A stretch of 64,000 nucleotides of DNA, taken from the NCBI GenBank assembly GCA_038058635.1, contig JBBUAP010000001.1:197190-261189 (forward strand), read 5' to 3'. The stretch comes from Patescibacteria group bacterium. GTDB lineage: Bacteria > Patescibacteriota > UBA1384 > 2-12-FULL-50-11. This document shows positions 2,971 through 8,578 of this stretch, in pieces. Numbering within the stretch: position 1 is the stretch's first letter; each line of letters starts with the position of its first letter. The notes beneath the pieces were generated by a model, which worked only from the letters and a program-made list of their open reading frames with translations, was not told the DNA's origin and made no database searches. Position numbers and translations under genes: made by a program.

Positions 2971-4413
2971 CTAATTGTGTATATTCACCGGTGTACCGAC
3001 CGGAGCGTTATCGTAGACCCAATCGGCGCCGGTATCTTCGATCCGAACACAGCCGTGCGAAACTGGTCGACCCAAGTGGCTGGCCGGTTCACGGGAATTA
3101 CACTGTGGATCAAAACAGGGAACACGATGCAATCCGTAGCCTTGGTATCCCCCTCCGTCCGGGGTTCGAGCAAGGGCGTTCCATTTTTCCATCCAAATCC
3201 CCGGAAACAGCCGTGATTGAGCTAAGGAGATTTTGTTTTTTATGTAGAAAACTCCTGACGGTGTTGGCGTGCCCCTTTTGCCGCTCGAGATCATATATTC
3301 GGCCTGCTTAACTTCACCGACCATTATAAAGAGTCGTTGTTTGGTTAAATTGATGTCGATGTATAAACCCGGCCAAAGGCCGGCGACATAATCGGGATAG
3401 ACTGTCTTCTCGGTGAAGGGGATAGCCCAAGTACTAATAGTGATCGGTGAATTACTGGTGTCAGTTCGTTCGGTAATTGTACGGGTAACATCCTTAGCTA
3501 AACGAGTCAGATCGGTTTCCCGACCGTCTCTCCCCTCTTGGGTTACTTGCTGGGTGTCGAACTGGGTTGTTTTGACCAACATTTTAATGTTGATCTTCGA
3601 AGCGATAGCACTGTTTAGATAGTTACTAACTTTAGTTTGCGAGATGGTATAGCTAATCCGACCATCGACAGGGGAAAAATCGAGAAATGAGTACTGACTG
3701 CTTGGGGTGATGGTGAAATTTTTATCCTCAAAATTGAGGTAGATGGGGGTGAATTTCTGTTCAACCTCGGTTTTTGTTTGGGCGGCGAGCTCGGTAGTGA
3801 TAATCGGTGAACTTTCGGTGTATTCCAGTTCGGCTGAAGCAGCAGTACCGCTTGAGAGGGCCGTTTTTATTGCCGTATCGATGGCGGTGTCCGAAATCGA
3901 AATGCCCTTTTGACCTTCGCTGACTACTAGTTGGCCGTTACTATAACTAATGACGGCGTCTTTGGCGGCGGTGGTGACGCCGAGAATTGTCTCCACTTTC
4001 TGGCGTAAGATAGAAGGATCAGCGTCGTAGGAGAGACCGAGGGTCTTGGAGCTAAACATCGACCGCCAATATTTTAGTGCCAACCAATCGAAACTGTTTG
4101 GTGGCCGAACTGCCTGCGACAAAGTCGACTGCTCGTCCACTTTTACCCCTAATTCATCGAGGGAAGCGCTGGCCGATTTGCCATTTAAGCTAAAAGATAA
4201 CTGTAATCCAGCTAACTCACCGGCCTTGAGCTGGATTTTCTCGGTCGCCGTCGTGTACGGTAGGCCACCGATATCAACGCCGGCCACCATCGTTCGGGGC
4301 AAAACTCGACCCTCGAAATTAAGCGAGGTAATCGCCCCCAGTGCCGCCACGAGTGACAGGACGGCGGTAAAACTGAATAAAGTGATTAGCCCAACTCTTT
4401 TGCGCGAAAACAT
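2971..4413 (-). CDS. L,D-transpeptidase (YkuD domain) with N-terminal TM anchor
   Basis: C-terminal SHGCVRI catalytic motif (H-G-C). N-terminal hydrophobic segment. Confidence 0.8.
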   Translation of the reverse strand: MFSRKRVGLITLFSFTAVLSLVAALGAITSLNFEGRVLPRTMVAGVDIGGLPYTTATEKIQLKAGELAGLQLSFSLNGKSASASLDELGVKVDEQSTLSQAVRPPNSFDWLALKYWRSMFSSKTLGLSYDADPSILRQKVETILGVTTAAKDAVISYSNGQLVVSEGQKGISISDTAIDTAIKTALSSGTAASAELEYTESSPIITTELAAQTKTEVEQKFTPIYLNFEDKNFTITPSSQYSFLDFSPVDGRISYTISQTKVSNYLNSAIASKINIKMLVKTTQFDTQQVTQEGRDGRETDLTRLAKDVTRTITERTDTSNSPITISTWAIPFTEKTVYPDYVAGLWPGLYIDINLTKQRLFIMVGEVKQAEYMISSGKRGTPTPSGVFYIKNKISLAQSRLFPGIWMEKWNALARTPDGGGYQGYGLHRVPCFDPQCNSREPASHLGRPVSHGCVRIEDTGADWVYDNAPVGTPVNIHN

Positions 4414-4493
4414 ATGAGGTAATTGTAGCGCTTTAGGCTTGTACTGTAACTAACCCACTAGTTTTCGTCCGAGCTCTTGTTAAAATAGATTCA

Positions 4494-4691
4494 ATGACGA
4501 CAGACTGGACTGACTTATACCGTCAATATCGTGGCCAATGGGTGGCGCTTGAGGGTGACGAGAAAACCGTTGTTGGTAGTGGCAAAACTGCTAGGCAGGC
4601 ACTTGATAAGGCCATTGCCAAGGGCGTAGCCGAGCCTATATTAACCAAATTGCCCGATCAGCTCGTTCCCTACGTCGGCTACGGCGCATGA
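4494..4691 (+). CDS. DUF5678-family small protein
   Basis: YRGQWVAL core, 65 aa. Stop overlaps the next start (ATGA). Confidence 0.55.
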   Translation: MTTDWTDLYRQYRGQWVALEGDEKTVVGSGKTARQALDKAIAKGVAEPILTKLPDQLVPYVGYGA

Positions 4692-5080
4692 AGTTTGGCT
4701 ACAAAAAATTCGATCACTTCTACCGTCCCGTCATCCCAATTAAAGTCAAATATAAGGGTCTTTCGGTCGGTTATGAAGTTCTGATCGATTCAGGTGCCGA
4801 TTTGTGTATATTTGACGCCGAAATCGGCGAGATTTTAGGGATTGATATTGAAAGTGGTCAGCCAGGAGAAGTTAGCGGTGTGGCGGGTCAAATATCAACA
4901 ATATTCGTTCACACAGTCACGATTGAAATTGGCGGACACTCAAAAGTTATCGATGTCGGATTCCTGTCCAAAGTAACCGATGGCCACAACTACGGCGTTG
5001 TTGGTCAGTACGGTTTTTTCGACCAGTTTGTGGTAGCTTTTGACTATGCGAAAAAAGAGATTGAGCTTAAGGCGCCCTAA
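4688..5080 (+). CDS. retropepsin-like (clan AA) aspartic protease
   Basis: LIDSGADLCIF, a D-S-G-A active-site motif, in a 130-aa single-domain protein. Confidence 0.65.
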   Translation: MKFGYKKFDHFYRPVIPIKVKYKGLSVGYEVLIDSGADLCIFDAEIGEILGIDIESGQPGEVSGVAGQISTIFVHTVTIEIGGHSKVIDVGFLSKVTDGHNYGVVGQYGFFDQFVVAFDYAKKEIELKAP

Positions 5081-5094
5081 CCATTTTTTAGTTG

Positions 5095-5982
5095 TTAAAA
5101 CAGGGCCCTCTTGGTCAGTAGCTCAATAAAGCTTTCGAATGAAATTCCGGCCTTGAGTAGCTCTTTGTTTATCAGAGAGTTTTTTGTTAGGCCGGGCAGC
5201 ACATTTAACTCTAGAAAATAAGGCGTTTTGTCACGCAACATCCAATCGATACGGGCATAATGCCGACAACCGAACTGACGAAATATTTCCTCGGAAAAAG
5301 ACTGGATTTGTTTGGTCATATCATCGGAAATTCTAGCTGGAACTATCTCATCACAACTTATACCGTCGTACTTGGCCTTAAAATCAAAGAACTCATTTTT
5401 TGGCACGATCTCAATAACCGGTAAAGCTTCGACCGAACCGCGCAGATCGATTACTCCGCACGACAGCTCGGTACCACCGATAAGTTCTTCAACTAGTACC
5501 TCGGGCCCAAATTTCTTGGCGGATCTAATTGCTGGCAAGAGCTGGTCATGATTTCTGACAATGGTGACGCCGAAGCTAGAGCCCTCCTGAGAGGGCTTAA
5601 CAACTACCGGCGGGTCGGGAAACTGGTTTGCGGAACCGTCTACAGACCACTTCGGAGTCTGGAACCCCAGTTTTTGAACCGCTAGCTTAGCTTCTAATTT
5701 GTTCCAAGATAACCTACACGCCATTGGCCCGCTTCCGGTGTACGGAATGCCGGCTTTTTCTAGAATCTTTTGGATTTGCCCATCTTCACCAAACTTGCCA
5801 TGAAGAGCCAGGATTACTAGTTGAGGCTGAATGTAACTGATTCTCTCCTGCCAATTATATTCGGCGCAATCTATTATCTGATGATCAAGCTTTAGCGATC
5901 GTAGGGCGGCGACAACCGTCTCGGCACTCCATAGCGCTACTGTTCTTTCGCTGGAATTTCCGCCCGTTAAGACAGCGATCAT
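5095..5982 (-). CDS. ddl: D-alanine--D-alanine ligase
   Basis: ATP-grasp layout. N-terminal IAVLTGGNSSER and HGKFGEDGQIQ are typical of Ddl. Confidence 0.85.
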   Translation of the reverse strand: MIAVLTGGNSSERTVALWSAETVVAALRSLKLDHQIIDCAEYNWQERISYIQPQLVILALHGKFGEDGQIQKILEKAGIPYTGSGPMACRLSWNKLEAKLAVQKLGFQTPKWSVDGSANQFPDPPVVVKPSQEGSSFGVTIVRNHDQLLPAIRSAKKFGPEVLVEELIGGTELSCGVIDLRGSVEALPVIEIVPKNEFFDFKAKYDGISCDEIVPARISDDMTKQIQSFSEEIFRQFGCRHYARIDWMLRDKTPYFLELNVLPGLTKNSLINKELLKAGISFESFIELLTKRALF

Positions 5983-5986
5983 ATTG

Positions 5987-6059
5987 TGGGCCCGGATGGA
6001 CTCGAACCATCGATATCTGAGACATAAGCTCAGCGCATTAGCCGCTATGCTACGGGCCC
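5987..6059 (-). tRNA. tRNA-Ile (anticodon UAU)
   Basis: Hand-folded cloverleaf: acceptor GGGCCCG/CGGGCCC, D stem GCAT/ATGC, anticodon stem CTGAG/CTCAG with loop CTTATGT, T arm GATGG-TTCGAGT-CCATC, discriminator A. No encoded CCA. Confidence 0.8.
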
Positions 6060-6313
6060 CTAAAACGGAGTAATTTTACTCAATTTACATCATAAGGTAA
6101 AGGGTCACAGGGAGCCAGATTTGACAGGTGGGTAGCATCTGCTATTTTGTTTGAGACATCTTAGGGGTTCTTCTTCTAGGGTACGGAGGGAATTATAAAT
6201 GAGGGGATTGCTCGCAACGCCAATGTCTCTCGGTGTCTAAGAACACTCGATTGAGACCTGGCGGCGCTTGAGCGTTCCTTCAATAACCTTAACAACTAGA
6301 AGGAGAATGGAAA

Positions 6314-8578
6314 ATGAATAAGATACAAATATTCTTCGTCCGTTTTCTCGTTGTCCTCCTGGCCCTGCAGGGAACAGTCGCGGCCCAATTGCTGACCATC
6401 AAATCAGCCCAGGCCGCTGATCCCGTGCCGGCAGTAGTGATCAACGAGTTAATGTGGATGGGGACATTCGAAGACTCAAATGATGAATGGATTGAACTTC
6501 GCAATACCACCGATACCGCAATTGATATCAGTGGCTGGCAACTTACCAATGCCCAGTTCGGCGGCGATGGGGTACTAGACATTCCCGCAGGGAAAACAAT
6601 TGGGGCAAACGGCCTATTCTTAATTAGTCGCAAAGACGCCGCCAACTCGAAATTAGCTATTGAGCCAGACTTCCTGGCAAATTCGACTAATTCGCCGGGT
6701 AATATTCTACAGATTGACAATAATTGCCCTGGTGGGTCAACCACCTTTATGCAATTATTGAACCCGCTTATTGGCGATCCACCAACCGTCATCGATCAAG
6801 CTGGTTGCGATAGTTCCGGTAATCCGCTTAAGGGTAGTAGTACGCCAGCGGTCAAAAAGGCGATGGAACGCAATATCCTCATTACTGACGGGTTATTAGT
6901 CACCAGTTGGCACAATTCGGCTTCTCAAATCAACCTCGATTTAGGGGCAGTTGATTTCGCTTCGCCCAAAGCCGCCAATGGAACCACCGACACGACACCA
7001 CCAACAATTGGCACAGTGACTGATGATGGTCAGTTCACCGCCAACCCAAACCAACTGAATGCCAGTTGGACAGGATTTGCCGATCCAGAATCCGGGGTTG
7101 CGAGCTACAAAGCTGGCGTGGGCACCGCGGCCGGATTAAATGATGTGGTGGCGCTAAAAGGCATGAACTTGGTAACCAGCTACACCTTCACTGTCGCTGA
7201 CAGCGCGCTCGGTTTCCCGCTTCAGGAAAACGCGATCTACTTCGTCAATGTCGTTGCGACCAACGGCGTTGGATTAACGAGCTTAATGGCCAGCAGTAGC
7301 GGCATCACTGTCAATACCGTCAATCCGCTGACACCGGCCAATCTCAAAGTAGCCGATGTCCCATCAGATAACGGCGGCAGTTTGAAAGCGACTTGGGACG
7401 CTTCGTCGGTCGATACGACCAGCTACCAACTCAACTATCGCAAGGCAGGTGATCTAACTTGGTCGCTACCGATCAATGTTGGTCTGGCCTTGGAAAAAAC
7501 CATCAGTGGCCTGCTTAACGCACCGGTCAGCTACGAGTTCACTGTCGAGGCGATTGACTTCAACGCTCAACACTCGACTCCGAGCGCTATCGTGCTCGCT
7601 ACCGCGCTTGATAACTTGGTGCCGATCATCGACGCCAACAAAGTTGTCGTCAATCAAAACAAGCCGGGCACGGCCGATACAGTGGCCGGTTTAGCGGGAG
7701 CGGCGAACGAACCAGAAGTTGCCGTCGTCCTATTATCGGCTGCGCCTGAAGATCCAACCGCCACCGTTATCGGTTCGGTGTTAAGCAATCCCGACGGATC
7801 GTGGCCGGCCATTGGCATCGAGGACAACAAGTACAGCCGAGTCTGGTTAGTGCTAGTTGACGAGGGCGACAATGTTAGTCTGCCCTTGCAGTTGAATAAC
7901 GATATTGTCGGACCAATCGCACCGGTTCTCAACAAAGTGGTGGCTAATTGCGAGTCAAGCAACTGCCGAGTCACTTTAGACTGGCAAGCCGGCTCGACTG
8001 ACACGGCTAGCTACAAAGTCACCTATACCGTCGACGGGGTGGACCATCAGACTTTTGAAGTCACCACCACCTCAATGGCGATGGACTTAGCTACTGGTAA
8101 AAGCTATCTGTTCAAGGTAGTTGGCTATGACCAGTACGGCAACCCAAGTACAGCGAGCAATATCTTCTCTGTCACCTTAAATAAGGGCGTGAAGACAACA
8201 GCCGTACTAACAAATGGCAAGCAGGTAACAACAACTGAAGCTATTTCAGGATCGTTGGAAGTAAAAACAACTCCTGTATCTGCACCGAAACCTGCTCCGG
8301 CTCAATTTGCGCCAAAAGTTAAGGCGGCCGAGCCAGTGGTGGAGACACCGACTGAACCAACTCCCCCGCTCGTCGCCGATACCGAAAACAGTCGCGATTG
8401 GGTTCGCATCTTAGTGGTAGTAGTGCTACTACTAATCATCGCTGGTAGCTTCTATGCGCTATCACGATCGGTTCAAGAGACACCGGAAGAAGAGTTTGAC
8501 CGCAACAAAGCCGAATCGAAGGCTGAGGATACTGCGGGAACAACTAAACGCCGCGGTCGTCGACGACACCGACGCTAG
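6314..8578 (+). CDS. secreted/surface protein with lamin-tail domain, Ig/FN3-like repeats, C-terminal TM and Arg-rich tail
   Basis: Signal peptide. LTD signature VVINELMWMG..DEWIELRNTTDTAIDISGWQL. C-terminal hydrophobic helix then RRGRRRHRR. Confidence 0.6.
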   Translation: MNKIQIFFVRFLVVLLALQGTVAAQLLTIKSAQAADPVPAVVINELMWMGTFEDSNDEWIELRNTTDTAIDISGWQLTNAQFGGDGVLDIPAGKTIGANGLFLISRKDAANSKLAIEPDFLANSTNSPGNILQIDNNCPGGSTTFMQLLNPLIGDPPTVIDQAGCDSSGNPLKGSSTPAVKKAMERNILITDGLLVTSWHNSASQINLDLGAVDFASPKAANGTTDTTPPTIGTVTDDGQFTANPNQLNASWTGFADPESGVASYKAGVGTAAGLNDVVALKGMNLVTSYTFTVADSALGFPLQENAIYFVNVVATNGVGLTSLMASSSGITVNTVNPLTPANLKVADVPSDNGGSLKATWDASSVDTTSYQLNYRKAGDLTWSLPINVGLALEKTISGLLNAPVSYEFTVEAIDFNAQHSTPSAIVLATALDNLVPIIDANKVVVNQNKPGTADTVAGLAGAANEPEVAVVLLSAAPEDPTATVIGSVLSNPDGSWPAIGIEDNKYSRVWLVLVDEGDNVSLPLQLNNDIVGPIAPVLNKVVANCESSNCRVTLDWQAGSTDTASYKVTYTVDGVDHQTFEVTTTSMAMDLATGKSYLFKVVGYDQYGNPSTASNIFSVTLNKGVKTTAVLTNGKQVTTTEAISGSLEVKTTPVSAPKPAPAQFAPKVKAAEPVVETPTEPTPPLVADTENSRDWVRILVVVVLLLIIAGSFYALSRSVQETPEEEFDRNKAESKAEDTAGTTKRRGRRRHRR

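Follow-up and report, generated by a model that had tools for sequence, protein, structure and literature searches.

A DUF5678 and retropepsin gene pair in Patescibacteria: one-sided decay of the protease and a possible toxin-antitoxin-like role

In a 64,000-nucleotide stretch of the genome of a Patescibacteria group bacterium (assembly GCA_038058635.1, contig JBBUAP010000001.1, positions 197,190 to 261,189 of the forward strand; hereafter the window, to which coordinates refer unless a locus is named), two small genes lie head to tail with a four-nucleotide overlap, the first coding for a DUF5678 protein and the second for a retropepsin-like aspartic protease. Comparing relatives of this pair across genomes and metagenome contigs, we find that the protease is never kept without its partner, whereas DUF5678 often persists where the protease has been lost. 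Together with a conserved C-terminal tail on the DUF5678 protein, this pattern leads us to suggest, with a probability of roughly 0.45, that the two genes form a cassette akin to toxin-antitoxin or abortive-defence systems, where DUF5678 would restrain, via its tail, a potentially harmful cytoplasmic aspartic protease. The features of the pair are as follows.

4494..4691, + strand: DUF5678 gene, 65 amino acids (aa; MTTDW...YRGQWVAL...PYVGYGA), from the open reading frame (ORF) list and Pfam.
4688..5080, + strand: retropepsin-like (clan AA) aspartic protease gene, 130 aa, single-domain, containing VLIDSGADLCIF, from the ORF list and Pfam.
4688..4691, + strand: ATGA stop/start overlap (stop TGA 4689-4691, start ATG 4688-4690), the proposed site of translational coupling.
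4653..4688, + strand: C-terminal tail region of DUF5678, P54-x-x-L57-x-x-Y60-V61-G62-YGA, conserved and predicted to be unstructured; proposed protease-contacting motif.
4787..4801, + strand: catalytic motif D34-S35-G36-A37-D38 of the protease, from the alignment.
4859..4912, + strand: flap hairpin of the protease, residues 58-75 (model strands 58-63 and 69-81; G64 and H75 invariant, G67 nearly so).
4997..5020, + strand: second retropepsin signature of the protease, V104-V105-G106-Q-x-G-F-F (hydrophobic-hydrophobic-Gly).

An earlier note on this DNA had described the two ORFs, with their lengths and the ATGA overlap, and had identified them as a DUF5678 protein and a clan-AA aspartic protease. 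The ORF list and the sequence bear out the former, and both identifications stand up in Pfam, where each ORF scores above the gathering cut-off of its family: DUF5678 reaches 34.7 bits against PF18929 over residues 8-55 (cut-off 23.2) and the protease 30.2 bits against Asp_protease_2, PF13650 (cut-off 24.3), with gag-asp_proteas and RVP as weaker matches. Each gene occurs once in the window.

Adjacency of the two genes is conserved

We scanned one genome per species (185,579 species) for relatives of the protease and analysed the best 80 of the 328 that tblastn confirmed. These loci come from 80 different assemblies, almost all of them metagenome-assembled genomes of Patescibacteria (the candidate phyla radiation, CPR). 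In 79 of the 80 the protease gene is immediately preceded by a DUF5678-like ORF on the same strand; in the remaining locus, L018, the DUF5678 gene is cut by the end of the contig. The converse scan was centred on DUF5678 and covered metagenome contigs with a narrowed DUF5678 alignment; it yielded 71 loci with enough downstream sequence, and in 67 of these a protease homologue follows directly. Even proteases that are only 36-45% identical to that of the window (L082, L081) keep a DUF5678-type partner with an aromatic-aliphatic C-terminus. Adjacency of the two genes is far beyond chance, and the conserved co-occurrence on which the earlier note had made its proposal depend is present in both directions (80 of 80 protease loci, counting L018, and 67 of 71 DUF5678 loci). 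One locus carries two tandem pairs (L096:3001-4442, with genes at 3001-3195 and 3195-3578 and again at 3833-4018 and 4164-4442), the second protease aligning from residue 36 only.

The protease decays while its partner persists

The two genes differ sharply in how they are lost. Among the 71 DUF5678-centred loci, the protease is wholly absent from four (L122, L124, L127, L130) and disrupted beside an intact DUF5678 gene in nine: nonsense codons interrupt it in L085 (TGA), L100 (TAG) and L121 (TAG), it is truncated in L104 and L116, frameshifted in L112 and shortened at the C-terminus in L128 and L151, and in L152 an internal deletion takes out the catalytic Asp. DUF5678, on the other hand, is missing or broken in none of the 79 evaluable protease-centred loci (0/79 versus 13/71; Fisher's exact p = 3e-5). 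Allowing for the fact that DUF5678 presents a two-fold smaller target, about seven broken copies would be expected, and the probability of seeing zero is about 6e-4. The same direction of loss is found in two of the protease-centred genome loci: in L002, from the window's own lineage, where the protease begins with ATA and has TAA at codon 19, and in L029, where it contains a TAG; DUF5678 is intact in both.

Recoding under genetic code 25 does not explain the in-frame stops, as TAG, TAA and TGA are mixed and fall at non-equivalent positions. Three short representative proteins (P0191, P0225 and P0246) begin like DUF5678 and continue directly as a piece of the protease (GFFEFFKIGFDY..., GHGLLGQNGFF..., ILKPIIPIKI...); they look like what deletions have left of the pair.

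A protease that is never kept alone, next to a partner that often is, would be expected if the free protease were harmful. It would not be expected if DUF5678 were a mere activator of the protease or a mere substrate for it. Of all our results, one-sided decay is the one that discriminates best between models.

A conserved, unstructured tail on DUF5678

The AlphaFold2 model of DUF5678, with a mean predicted local distance difference test score (pLDDT) of 83.9, shows a compact alpha-beta-beta-alpha-beta domain at residues 5-52 (helix 5-12, strands 16-19 and 26-30, helix 33-42, strand 49-52), followed by a tail, residues 53-65, that has no predicted secondary structure and a pLDDT of about 54. 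Some of the most strongly conserved positions of the protein nonetheless fall in this tail. Counting over 123 non-redundant pairs, we find P54 and G62 in every protein (123/123 each), Y or F at position 60 likewise in all 123, L, I or M at position 57 in 121, and V or I at position 61 in 121. Beyond G62 there are between 0 and about 10 variable residues, and several DUF5678 proteins stop exactly at this glycine.

Such conservation near the end of a gene that abuts the next might reflect the nucleotides rather than the protein they encode. However, all four glycine codons are used at G62 (GGT 52, GGC 40, GGA 18, GGG 13), and the distance from this codon to the start of the protease gene ranges from 4 to 34 nucleotides. 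Free third codon positions and variable spacing point to selection on the amino acids of the tail, not on the nucleotides. These two observations, along with the presence of a Shine-Dalgarno-like motif upstream of the protease start in just 13 of 123 loci, also rule out that the tail is conserved as a by-product of a Shine-Dalgarno site for the protease.

The rarity of that motif further means that, as a rule, the protease gene has no separate ribosome-binding site. The junction, measured in 136 intact pairs, varies from an 11-nucleotide gap to a 17-nucleotide overlap, with 13 distinct offsets, and a four-nucleotide overlap accounts for 104 of them. This lack, combined with the overlap, argues that ribosomes go on to the protease straight after completing DUF5678.

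As for the domain that carries the tail, all 28 aligned DUF5678 homologues match PF18929 and none matches any other Pfam family. A DUF5678 profile searched against PDB sequences returned noise only, and a Foldseek search of the PDB with the model gave no fold match below E = 1. We considered whether the C-terminal glycine might indicate a beta-grasp, ubiquitin-like protein; neither the predicted alpha-beta-beta-alpha-beta topology nor Foldseek supports this. A HMMER search over 1.84 billion representatives found 969 DUF5678 clusters, 219 of them at E <= 1e-10, nearly all of which are stand-alone proteins of 50-90 aa; no genuine fusion of DUF5678 to a protease was found among the 969. At 50% identity the family comprises about 970 clusters, from bacteria and even pandoraviruses. 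The best viral structure matches are in fact DUF5678-annotated pandoravirus proteins (BFVD A0A2U7UG46 and A0A2U7UD66, from Pandoravirus macleodensis and P. neocaledonia), with a root-mean-square deviation of about 2 A over 53 columns. A further representative protein, P0271 (169 aa), ends in a DUF5678 domain, and its N-terminal region by eye resembles a PIN toxin; this may be a fusion, or else the start was mis-called beside a VapC-like gene.

The protease is competent as judged from sequence and predicted fold

In an alignment of 26 protease sequences, L32, D34, S35, G36, A37, D38, F42, G57, G64, H75, F92, G106, F111 and F118 are invariant. The larger set of 123 non-redundant intact homologues reads DSGAD at the catalytic motif in 117 cases and DSGSD in 6, and the motif [ILVM][ILVM]GQ..FF is found in all 123 (as VVGQ at residues 104-107 in the window). 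In the AlphaFold2 model of the protease (pLDDT 92.9; predicted template modelling score, pTM, 0.86) the strands follow one another as in retropepsins, a flap hairpin spans roughly residues 58-81, and the hydrophobic-hydrophobic-Gly motif is followed by a short helix. When this model was compared with the PDB by Foldseek, the protease of human immunodeficiency virus 1 (HIV-1) came top (E = 3.5e-5), followed by the proteases of human T-cell leukaemia virus 1 (HTLV-1) and xenotropic murine leukaemia virus-related virus (XMRV), the RVP domain of Ddi1 and APRc of Rickettsia; a protease profile run against PDB sequences gave weak matches to the feline immunodeficiency virus (FIV) and HIV proteases only. 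The earlier note had allowed that accurate alignment might find the catalytic Asp missing. It is intact, D-S-G-[AS]-D being kept in all 123 homologues within a confidently predicted retropepsin fold, and at the level of sequence and model the protease is catalytically competent. By analogy with its family, it should be active as a homodimer. Its maximum hydropathy over 19 residues is 1.12 and it has no membrane segment; a protein without such a hydrophobic segment would be soluble and presumably cytoplasmic.

Two residues outside the canonical retropepsin signature are also strongly conserved: C40 (window 4805-4807) is nearly invariant and H75 (4910-4912) invariant.

Covariation of the tail with the flap and a loop of the protease

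Pairwise distances among the DUF5678 proteins correlate with those among the proteases (r = 0.50). At the level of individual sites we scored covariation by mutual information with average-product correction, and the scores between the two proteins match the best found within a protein: positions 56, 58, 64 and 65 of the DUF5678 tail pair with residues 66 and 68 of the protease, at the tip of the flap, and with residues 93 and 98-101, in the loop that precedes the hydrophobic-hydrophobic-Gly motif. Judging by its position, this loop (93-101) would correspond to the one that lines the S1/S1' sites of retroviral proteases. The covariation can be described in terms of two subtypes, where tails of the form YVG-x-G-x go with the flap sequence -ITG- and a short loop, and tails of the form YVG-x-x go with -VGG-KAS- and a longer loop, AGRVMPYG (36/39). 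Such subtypes fit co-adaptation of the tail and the substrate cleft.

Genomic context and mobility

Further features next to the pair in the window are these.

2971..4413, - strand: YkuD L,D-transpeptidase with a PG_binding_4 domain, flanking gene (Pfam).
5095..5982, - strand: Ddl, D-Ala-D-Ala ligase, flanking gene (Pfam).
4478..4486, + strand: possible extended -10 promoter element (TGTTAAAAT), 7 nucleotides upstream of the DUF5678 start codon, recognised by eye and of low confidence.

Pfam confirms YkuD and Ddl as the flanks, so that the pair does lie between an L,D-transpeptidase gene and ddl, where the earlier note had placed it while seeing no functional link to either. We concur on the latter point as well. 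Over the protease-centred loci, 290 flanking ORFs fall into 251 clusters, and the immediate neighbours, 137 in number, match 137 different Pfam families, the commonest being ribosomal protein L5 in six loci. Given that its neighbours are not conserved, the pair is an autonomous unit, and its association with cell-wall genes is local and incidental; the YkuD/ddl context is common only to close relatives (L002 and, in part, L001) and is not found family-wide. Elsewhere the pair follows rplE directly (L024, L038, L049, L050, L069, L078) or has secY and adk among its flanking genes (L012, L031, L044), and thus sits within the conserved spc ribosomal-protein operon, or else it adjoins unrelated metabolic or transport genes. 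In some loci toxin-antitoxin or defence genes are found next door, which favours a role of that kind for the pair: DpnI, SLFN/AlbA_2 and a type IV secretion system (T4SS) pilin lie close to the pair in L083, while of the DUF5678 genes without protease the one in L130 adjoins DUF4258 and DUF2283-like ORFs and that in L124 a BrnA-like ORF (both by eye).

The distribution of the pair is patchy. Within the window's lineage there is synteny with L001 and L002, with 88% and 72.5% nucleotide identity over the pair, respectively, which implies vertical inheritance in that lineage. L001 is the closest relative, with a protease 97% identical to that of the window. An insertion of 2.6 kb separates its YkuD gene from the pair, and at the position of ddl it carries an ABC-transporter gene, with a match to the start region of ddl over the last 36 nucleotides only (L001:1050-3700 and 4424-6220 compared with window 4360-5982).

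The -10-like element is kept as CGTTAATAT and TGTTAGAAT in these syntenic relatives, L001 and L002; a consensus scan for two-hexamer promoters called none at this element. If it is a promoter, it might give rise to a leaderless or near-leaderless mRNA, a suggestion to which we attach low confidence. Upstream of it, at window 4446-4467, lies a block TGTAAC...CCCACTAG(T/C)TTT that is common to the window, L001 and L002 and holds the palindrome ACTAGT.

Other genes near this end of the window code for a SLOG cluster-4 protein (308-814), an RNase J-like beta-CASP metallo-beta-lactamase (979-2337), a CsoR/RcnR-type metal-sensitive repressor (2583-2816; barely above the Pfam threshold) and a 754-aa protein with a lamin-tail domain and fibronectin III (6314-8578). 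In L082, too, a lamin-tail-domain protein is found, directly upstream of the pair, which is probably a coincidence.

Restraint, activation or processing?

How might DUF5678 act on the protease? We envisage that DUF5678 is made first and that translation of the protease depends on ribosomes that have just completed DUF5678. Direct binding of DUF5678 would then hold the protease in check, with contact made by the unstructured tail, P-x-x-L-x-x-[YF]-[VI]-G, which would most likely lie beneath the flap, in the substrate cleft. Were the partner to be lost, degraded or displaced, for example upon phage infection or loss of the locus, the protease would be freed and could cleave cellular or invader proteins, leading to growth arrest. 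In this scheme we infer that the two proteins bind, that the effect is inhibitory and not activating, and that the free protease is toxic, as well as what triggers it and what it cleaves. The earlier note's suggestion of a regulator/protease or toxin-antitoxin-like module gains strength from one-sided decay, the conserved tail and homology to candidates in the PADLOC collection (see below); even so, it still stands as a proposal.

The most serious competitor is a scenario where a non-toxic protease with some specialised, benign proteolytic task needs DUF5678, either as an obligate cofactor that activates it or as an adaptor for its substrates. DUF5678 might, for instance, donate a C-terminal strand to complete the fold or help it dimerise, in the manner of the flaviviral NS2B/NS4A cofactors or adenovirus pVIc. 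Co-occurrence, co-translation, the conserved tail and the covariation with flap and loop are accommodated as well by this scenario as by inhibition, and both the placement in housekeeping operons and single-copy carriage on the chromosome suit a benign function. We nevertheless consider it unlikely. A protease that is inactive without its cofactor ought to be harmless when orphaned, and orphan proteases should therefore be as frequent as orphan partners, which is the opposite of what the two censuses returned. Nor would one anticipate the patchy distribution, the non-conserved context, the swapping of partners or the fact that relatives are embedded in defence loci. Alternatively, DUF5678 might be the physiological substrate, its tail being trimmed by the protease so as to mature or inactivate a protein that carries the real function of the module. 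Retropepsin substrates are hydrophobic and aromatic, and so is the tail, with 0-10 variable residues after the invariant glycine; in addition, the persistence of DUF5678 without the protease indicates that it may have a function of its own. Yet several of the proteins end at the invariant glycine and have nothing to remove, cleavage would release a few residues at most, and glycine is a poor P1 residue for retropepsins. If processing were required, moreover, DUF5678 would be useless beside a dead protease, where it nonetheless stays intact, and the absence of lone proteases would go unexplained. We regard this second scenario as improbable.

One might also imagine an arrangement akin to retroviral gag-pro: ribosomes would shift into the -1 frame at the overlap and make DUF5678 and the protease as one protein, from which the protease then frees itself. 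At the ATGA of the window the protease is indeed in the -1 frame relative to DUF5678, as in gag-pro. However, the window junction contains no slippery heptamer, the geometry and relative frame of the junction vary among homologues, and no fused proteins occur among the 2096 and 969 hits to the two families, deletion remnants apart. The chance that such a fusion is made strikes us as minute and we reject it.

A number of observations speak against the proposal that DUF5678 holds a harmful protease in check. Neither Pfam nor Foldseek against the PDB detected a recognisable DNA-binding domain in DUF5678 or a structural match to known antitoxins, which leaves classical autoregulation unsupported. 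The covariation between the two proteins is confounded by a two-clade phylogeny, and the two censuses of decay draw on different sources (species-representative genomes versus raw metagenome contigs), although the sampling design was symmetrical. Many copies lie within housekeeping operons, an unusual site for a toxin and one that suggests constitutive expression. Signs of mobility are scarce: tblastn of both window proteins against a plasmid collection and of the window protease against a phage collection gave no match, a single relative was found among 2.9 million viral contigs, and genomes usually carry one chromosomal copy. (A distant DUF5678 variant, P0272, likewise had no match among plasmids.) Finally, we found no precedent in the literature for an aspartic protease as effector of a toxin-antitoxin or defence system, and the PADLOC candidates PDC-M08 and PDC-M52, being explicitly untested, supply no mechanism. 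Full-text searches on DUF5678, retropepsin toxins and retropepsins in phage defence found nothing on the pair, and so far databases list the module only under a DUF entry and, more remotely, among the untested candidates of PADLOC.

It is tempting to go one step further and suppose that this is the first aspartic, retropepsin-fold protease to serve as a toxin-antitoxin or abortive-defence effector, that in DUF5678 we have the first natural protein to inhibit a retropepsin, its [YF]-[VI]-G tail plugging the cleft, and that PDC-M08 and PDC-M52 work on the same principle across bacteria, with swapped partners. In this extended form the idea is doubtful. Should restraint by DUF5678 prove correct, aspartic proteolysis would join the known chemistries of toxin-antitoxin and anti-phage systems, the DUF5678 family would acquire a function, and a naturally occurring peptide tail would be seen to inhibit the protease fold found in retroviruses. 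The pair also bears on how CPR bacteria with minimal genomes come to carry accessory or selfish cassettes inside core operons, and on the prokaryotic ancestry of single-domain retropepsins and thus the origin of retroviral proteases.

Comparison with known systems

As regards the protease by itself, APRc of Rickettsia (5c9d), the RVP domain of Ddi1 (7d66) and HIV-1 protease share its fold (Foldseek probability 1.0; target-normalised TM-score 0.57-0.70), the D-[ST]-G-A motif, the flap hairpin and the hydrophobic-hydrophobic-Gly motif. Identity to the window protease is only 15-25%, however, and none of the three has a dedicated small partner gene. They also differ in architecture: APRc is membrane-anchored, Ddi1 has multiple domains and retroviral proteases are cut from polyproteins, whereas the window protease would be a soluble, single-domain protein. 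Closer in size is the one neighbouring case that the literature searches brought up, Saci_1895, a retropepsin-domain protein of about 100 aa that in Sulfolobales is associated with CRISPR loci of type III-D (Vestergaard et al. 2014, PMC3973734); going by its description, it resembles the window protease in being a small, stand-alone retropepsin-domain protein, in that case linked to prokaryotic immunity loci.

As a two-gene unit, the pair has much in common with type II toxin-antitoxin systems. The genes are small, co-oriented and overlapping, with the presumed protective gene first; contexts are variable and the distribution is patchy; there are orphan 'antitoxins' without orphan 'toxins' and there is partner swapping; and the small protein ends in an unstructured C-terminal segment. 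The pair behaves as an autonomous two-gene cassette with one-sided orphans, although orphan counts come from two data sources. It departs from type II systems in that DUF5678 has no recognisable DNA-binding domain that would make it an autoregulating antitoxin, many copies lie inside other operons, and the effector is an aspartic protease, whereas no toxin is known to belong to that class.

The nearest catalogued relatives are two phage-defence candidates in PADLOC. PDC-M08 is a cassette of the form FAM_03167>>FAM_00414, listed with 381 occurrences in RefSeq genomes in a supplementary table, and is one of 145 explicitly untested candidates singled out by 'guilt by embedding', the loci in question being those of BREX, DISARM and type I restriction-modification (RM) systems (Payne et al. 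2024, bioRxiv 10.1101/2024.01.29.577857). In gene order it agrees with the pair described here: the A gene is small and comes first, and the B gene after it codes for about 127 aa. The resemblance is clearest for the protease, PDC-M08B being matched by 24 of 26 family proteases (best E = 1.9e-10; window protease 2.1e-5). For DUF5678 it is weak: PDC-M08A is matched by one of 28 homologues (E = 0.052) and by two of 149 (best E = 0.0011), with no match for the DUF5678 protein of the window. Note that PDC-M08A is still the sole PADLOC model that DUF5678 proteins match more than once, all others being weaker singletons. The two also differ in setting, PDC-M08 lying in BREX, DISARM or type I RM loci and the copies studied here in uncultivated Patescibacteria, mostly among housekeeping genes. 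Embedding in defence loci was not seen for the window copy, between YkuD and ddl, and in the 80 protease loci defence or toxin-antitoxin genes are only occasional neighbours.

The second candidate, PDC-M52, came to light through a distant protease query, on plasmid pPg_02 of Pseudanabaena galeata (NZ_CP112876.1; L164:3745-4351). Here, genes of 72 and 131 aa overlap by 8 nucleotides; their products, WP_281009728 and WP_281009727, are both annotated as hypothetical and constitute a bona fide PDC-M52 (A 5.4e-6, B 1.3e-44). As in the window, the gene for a retropepsin-like protein (B; 131 aa, LLDSGST) overlaps that of a small upstream partner. Unlike in the window, that partner, PDC-M52A, is unrelated to DUF5678, matches no Pfam family and has no YVG tail, and the pair is plasmid-borne and cyanobacterial. 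PDC-M52B is matched by 12 of the 26 family proteases, including the distant one of L082, which is nearer to PDC-M52B and yet has a partner of the DUF5678 type. Related proteases with different small upstream partners point to partner swapping of the kind seen in toxin and antitoxin families, and if DUF5678 does restrain its protease through the tail, this would provide a concrete mechanism to test for PDC-M08 and PDC-M52.

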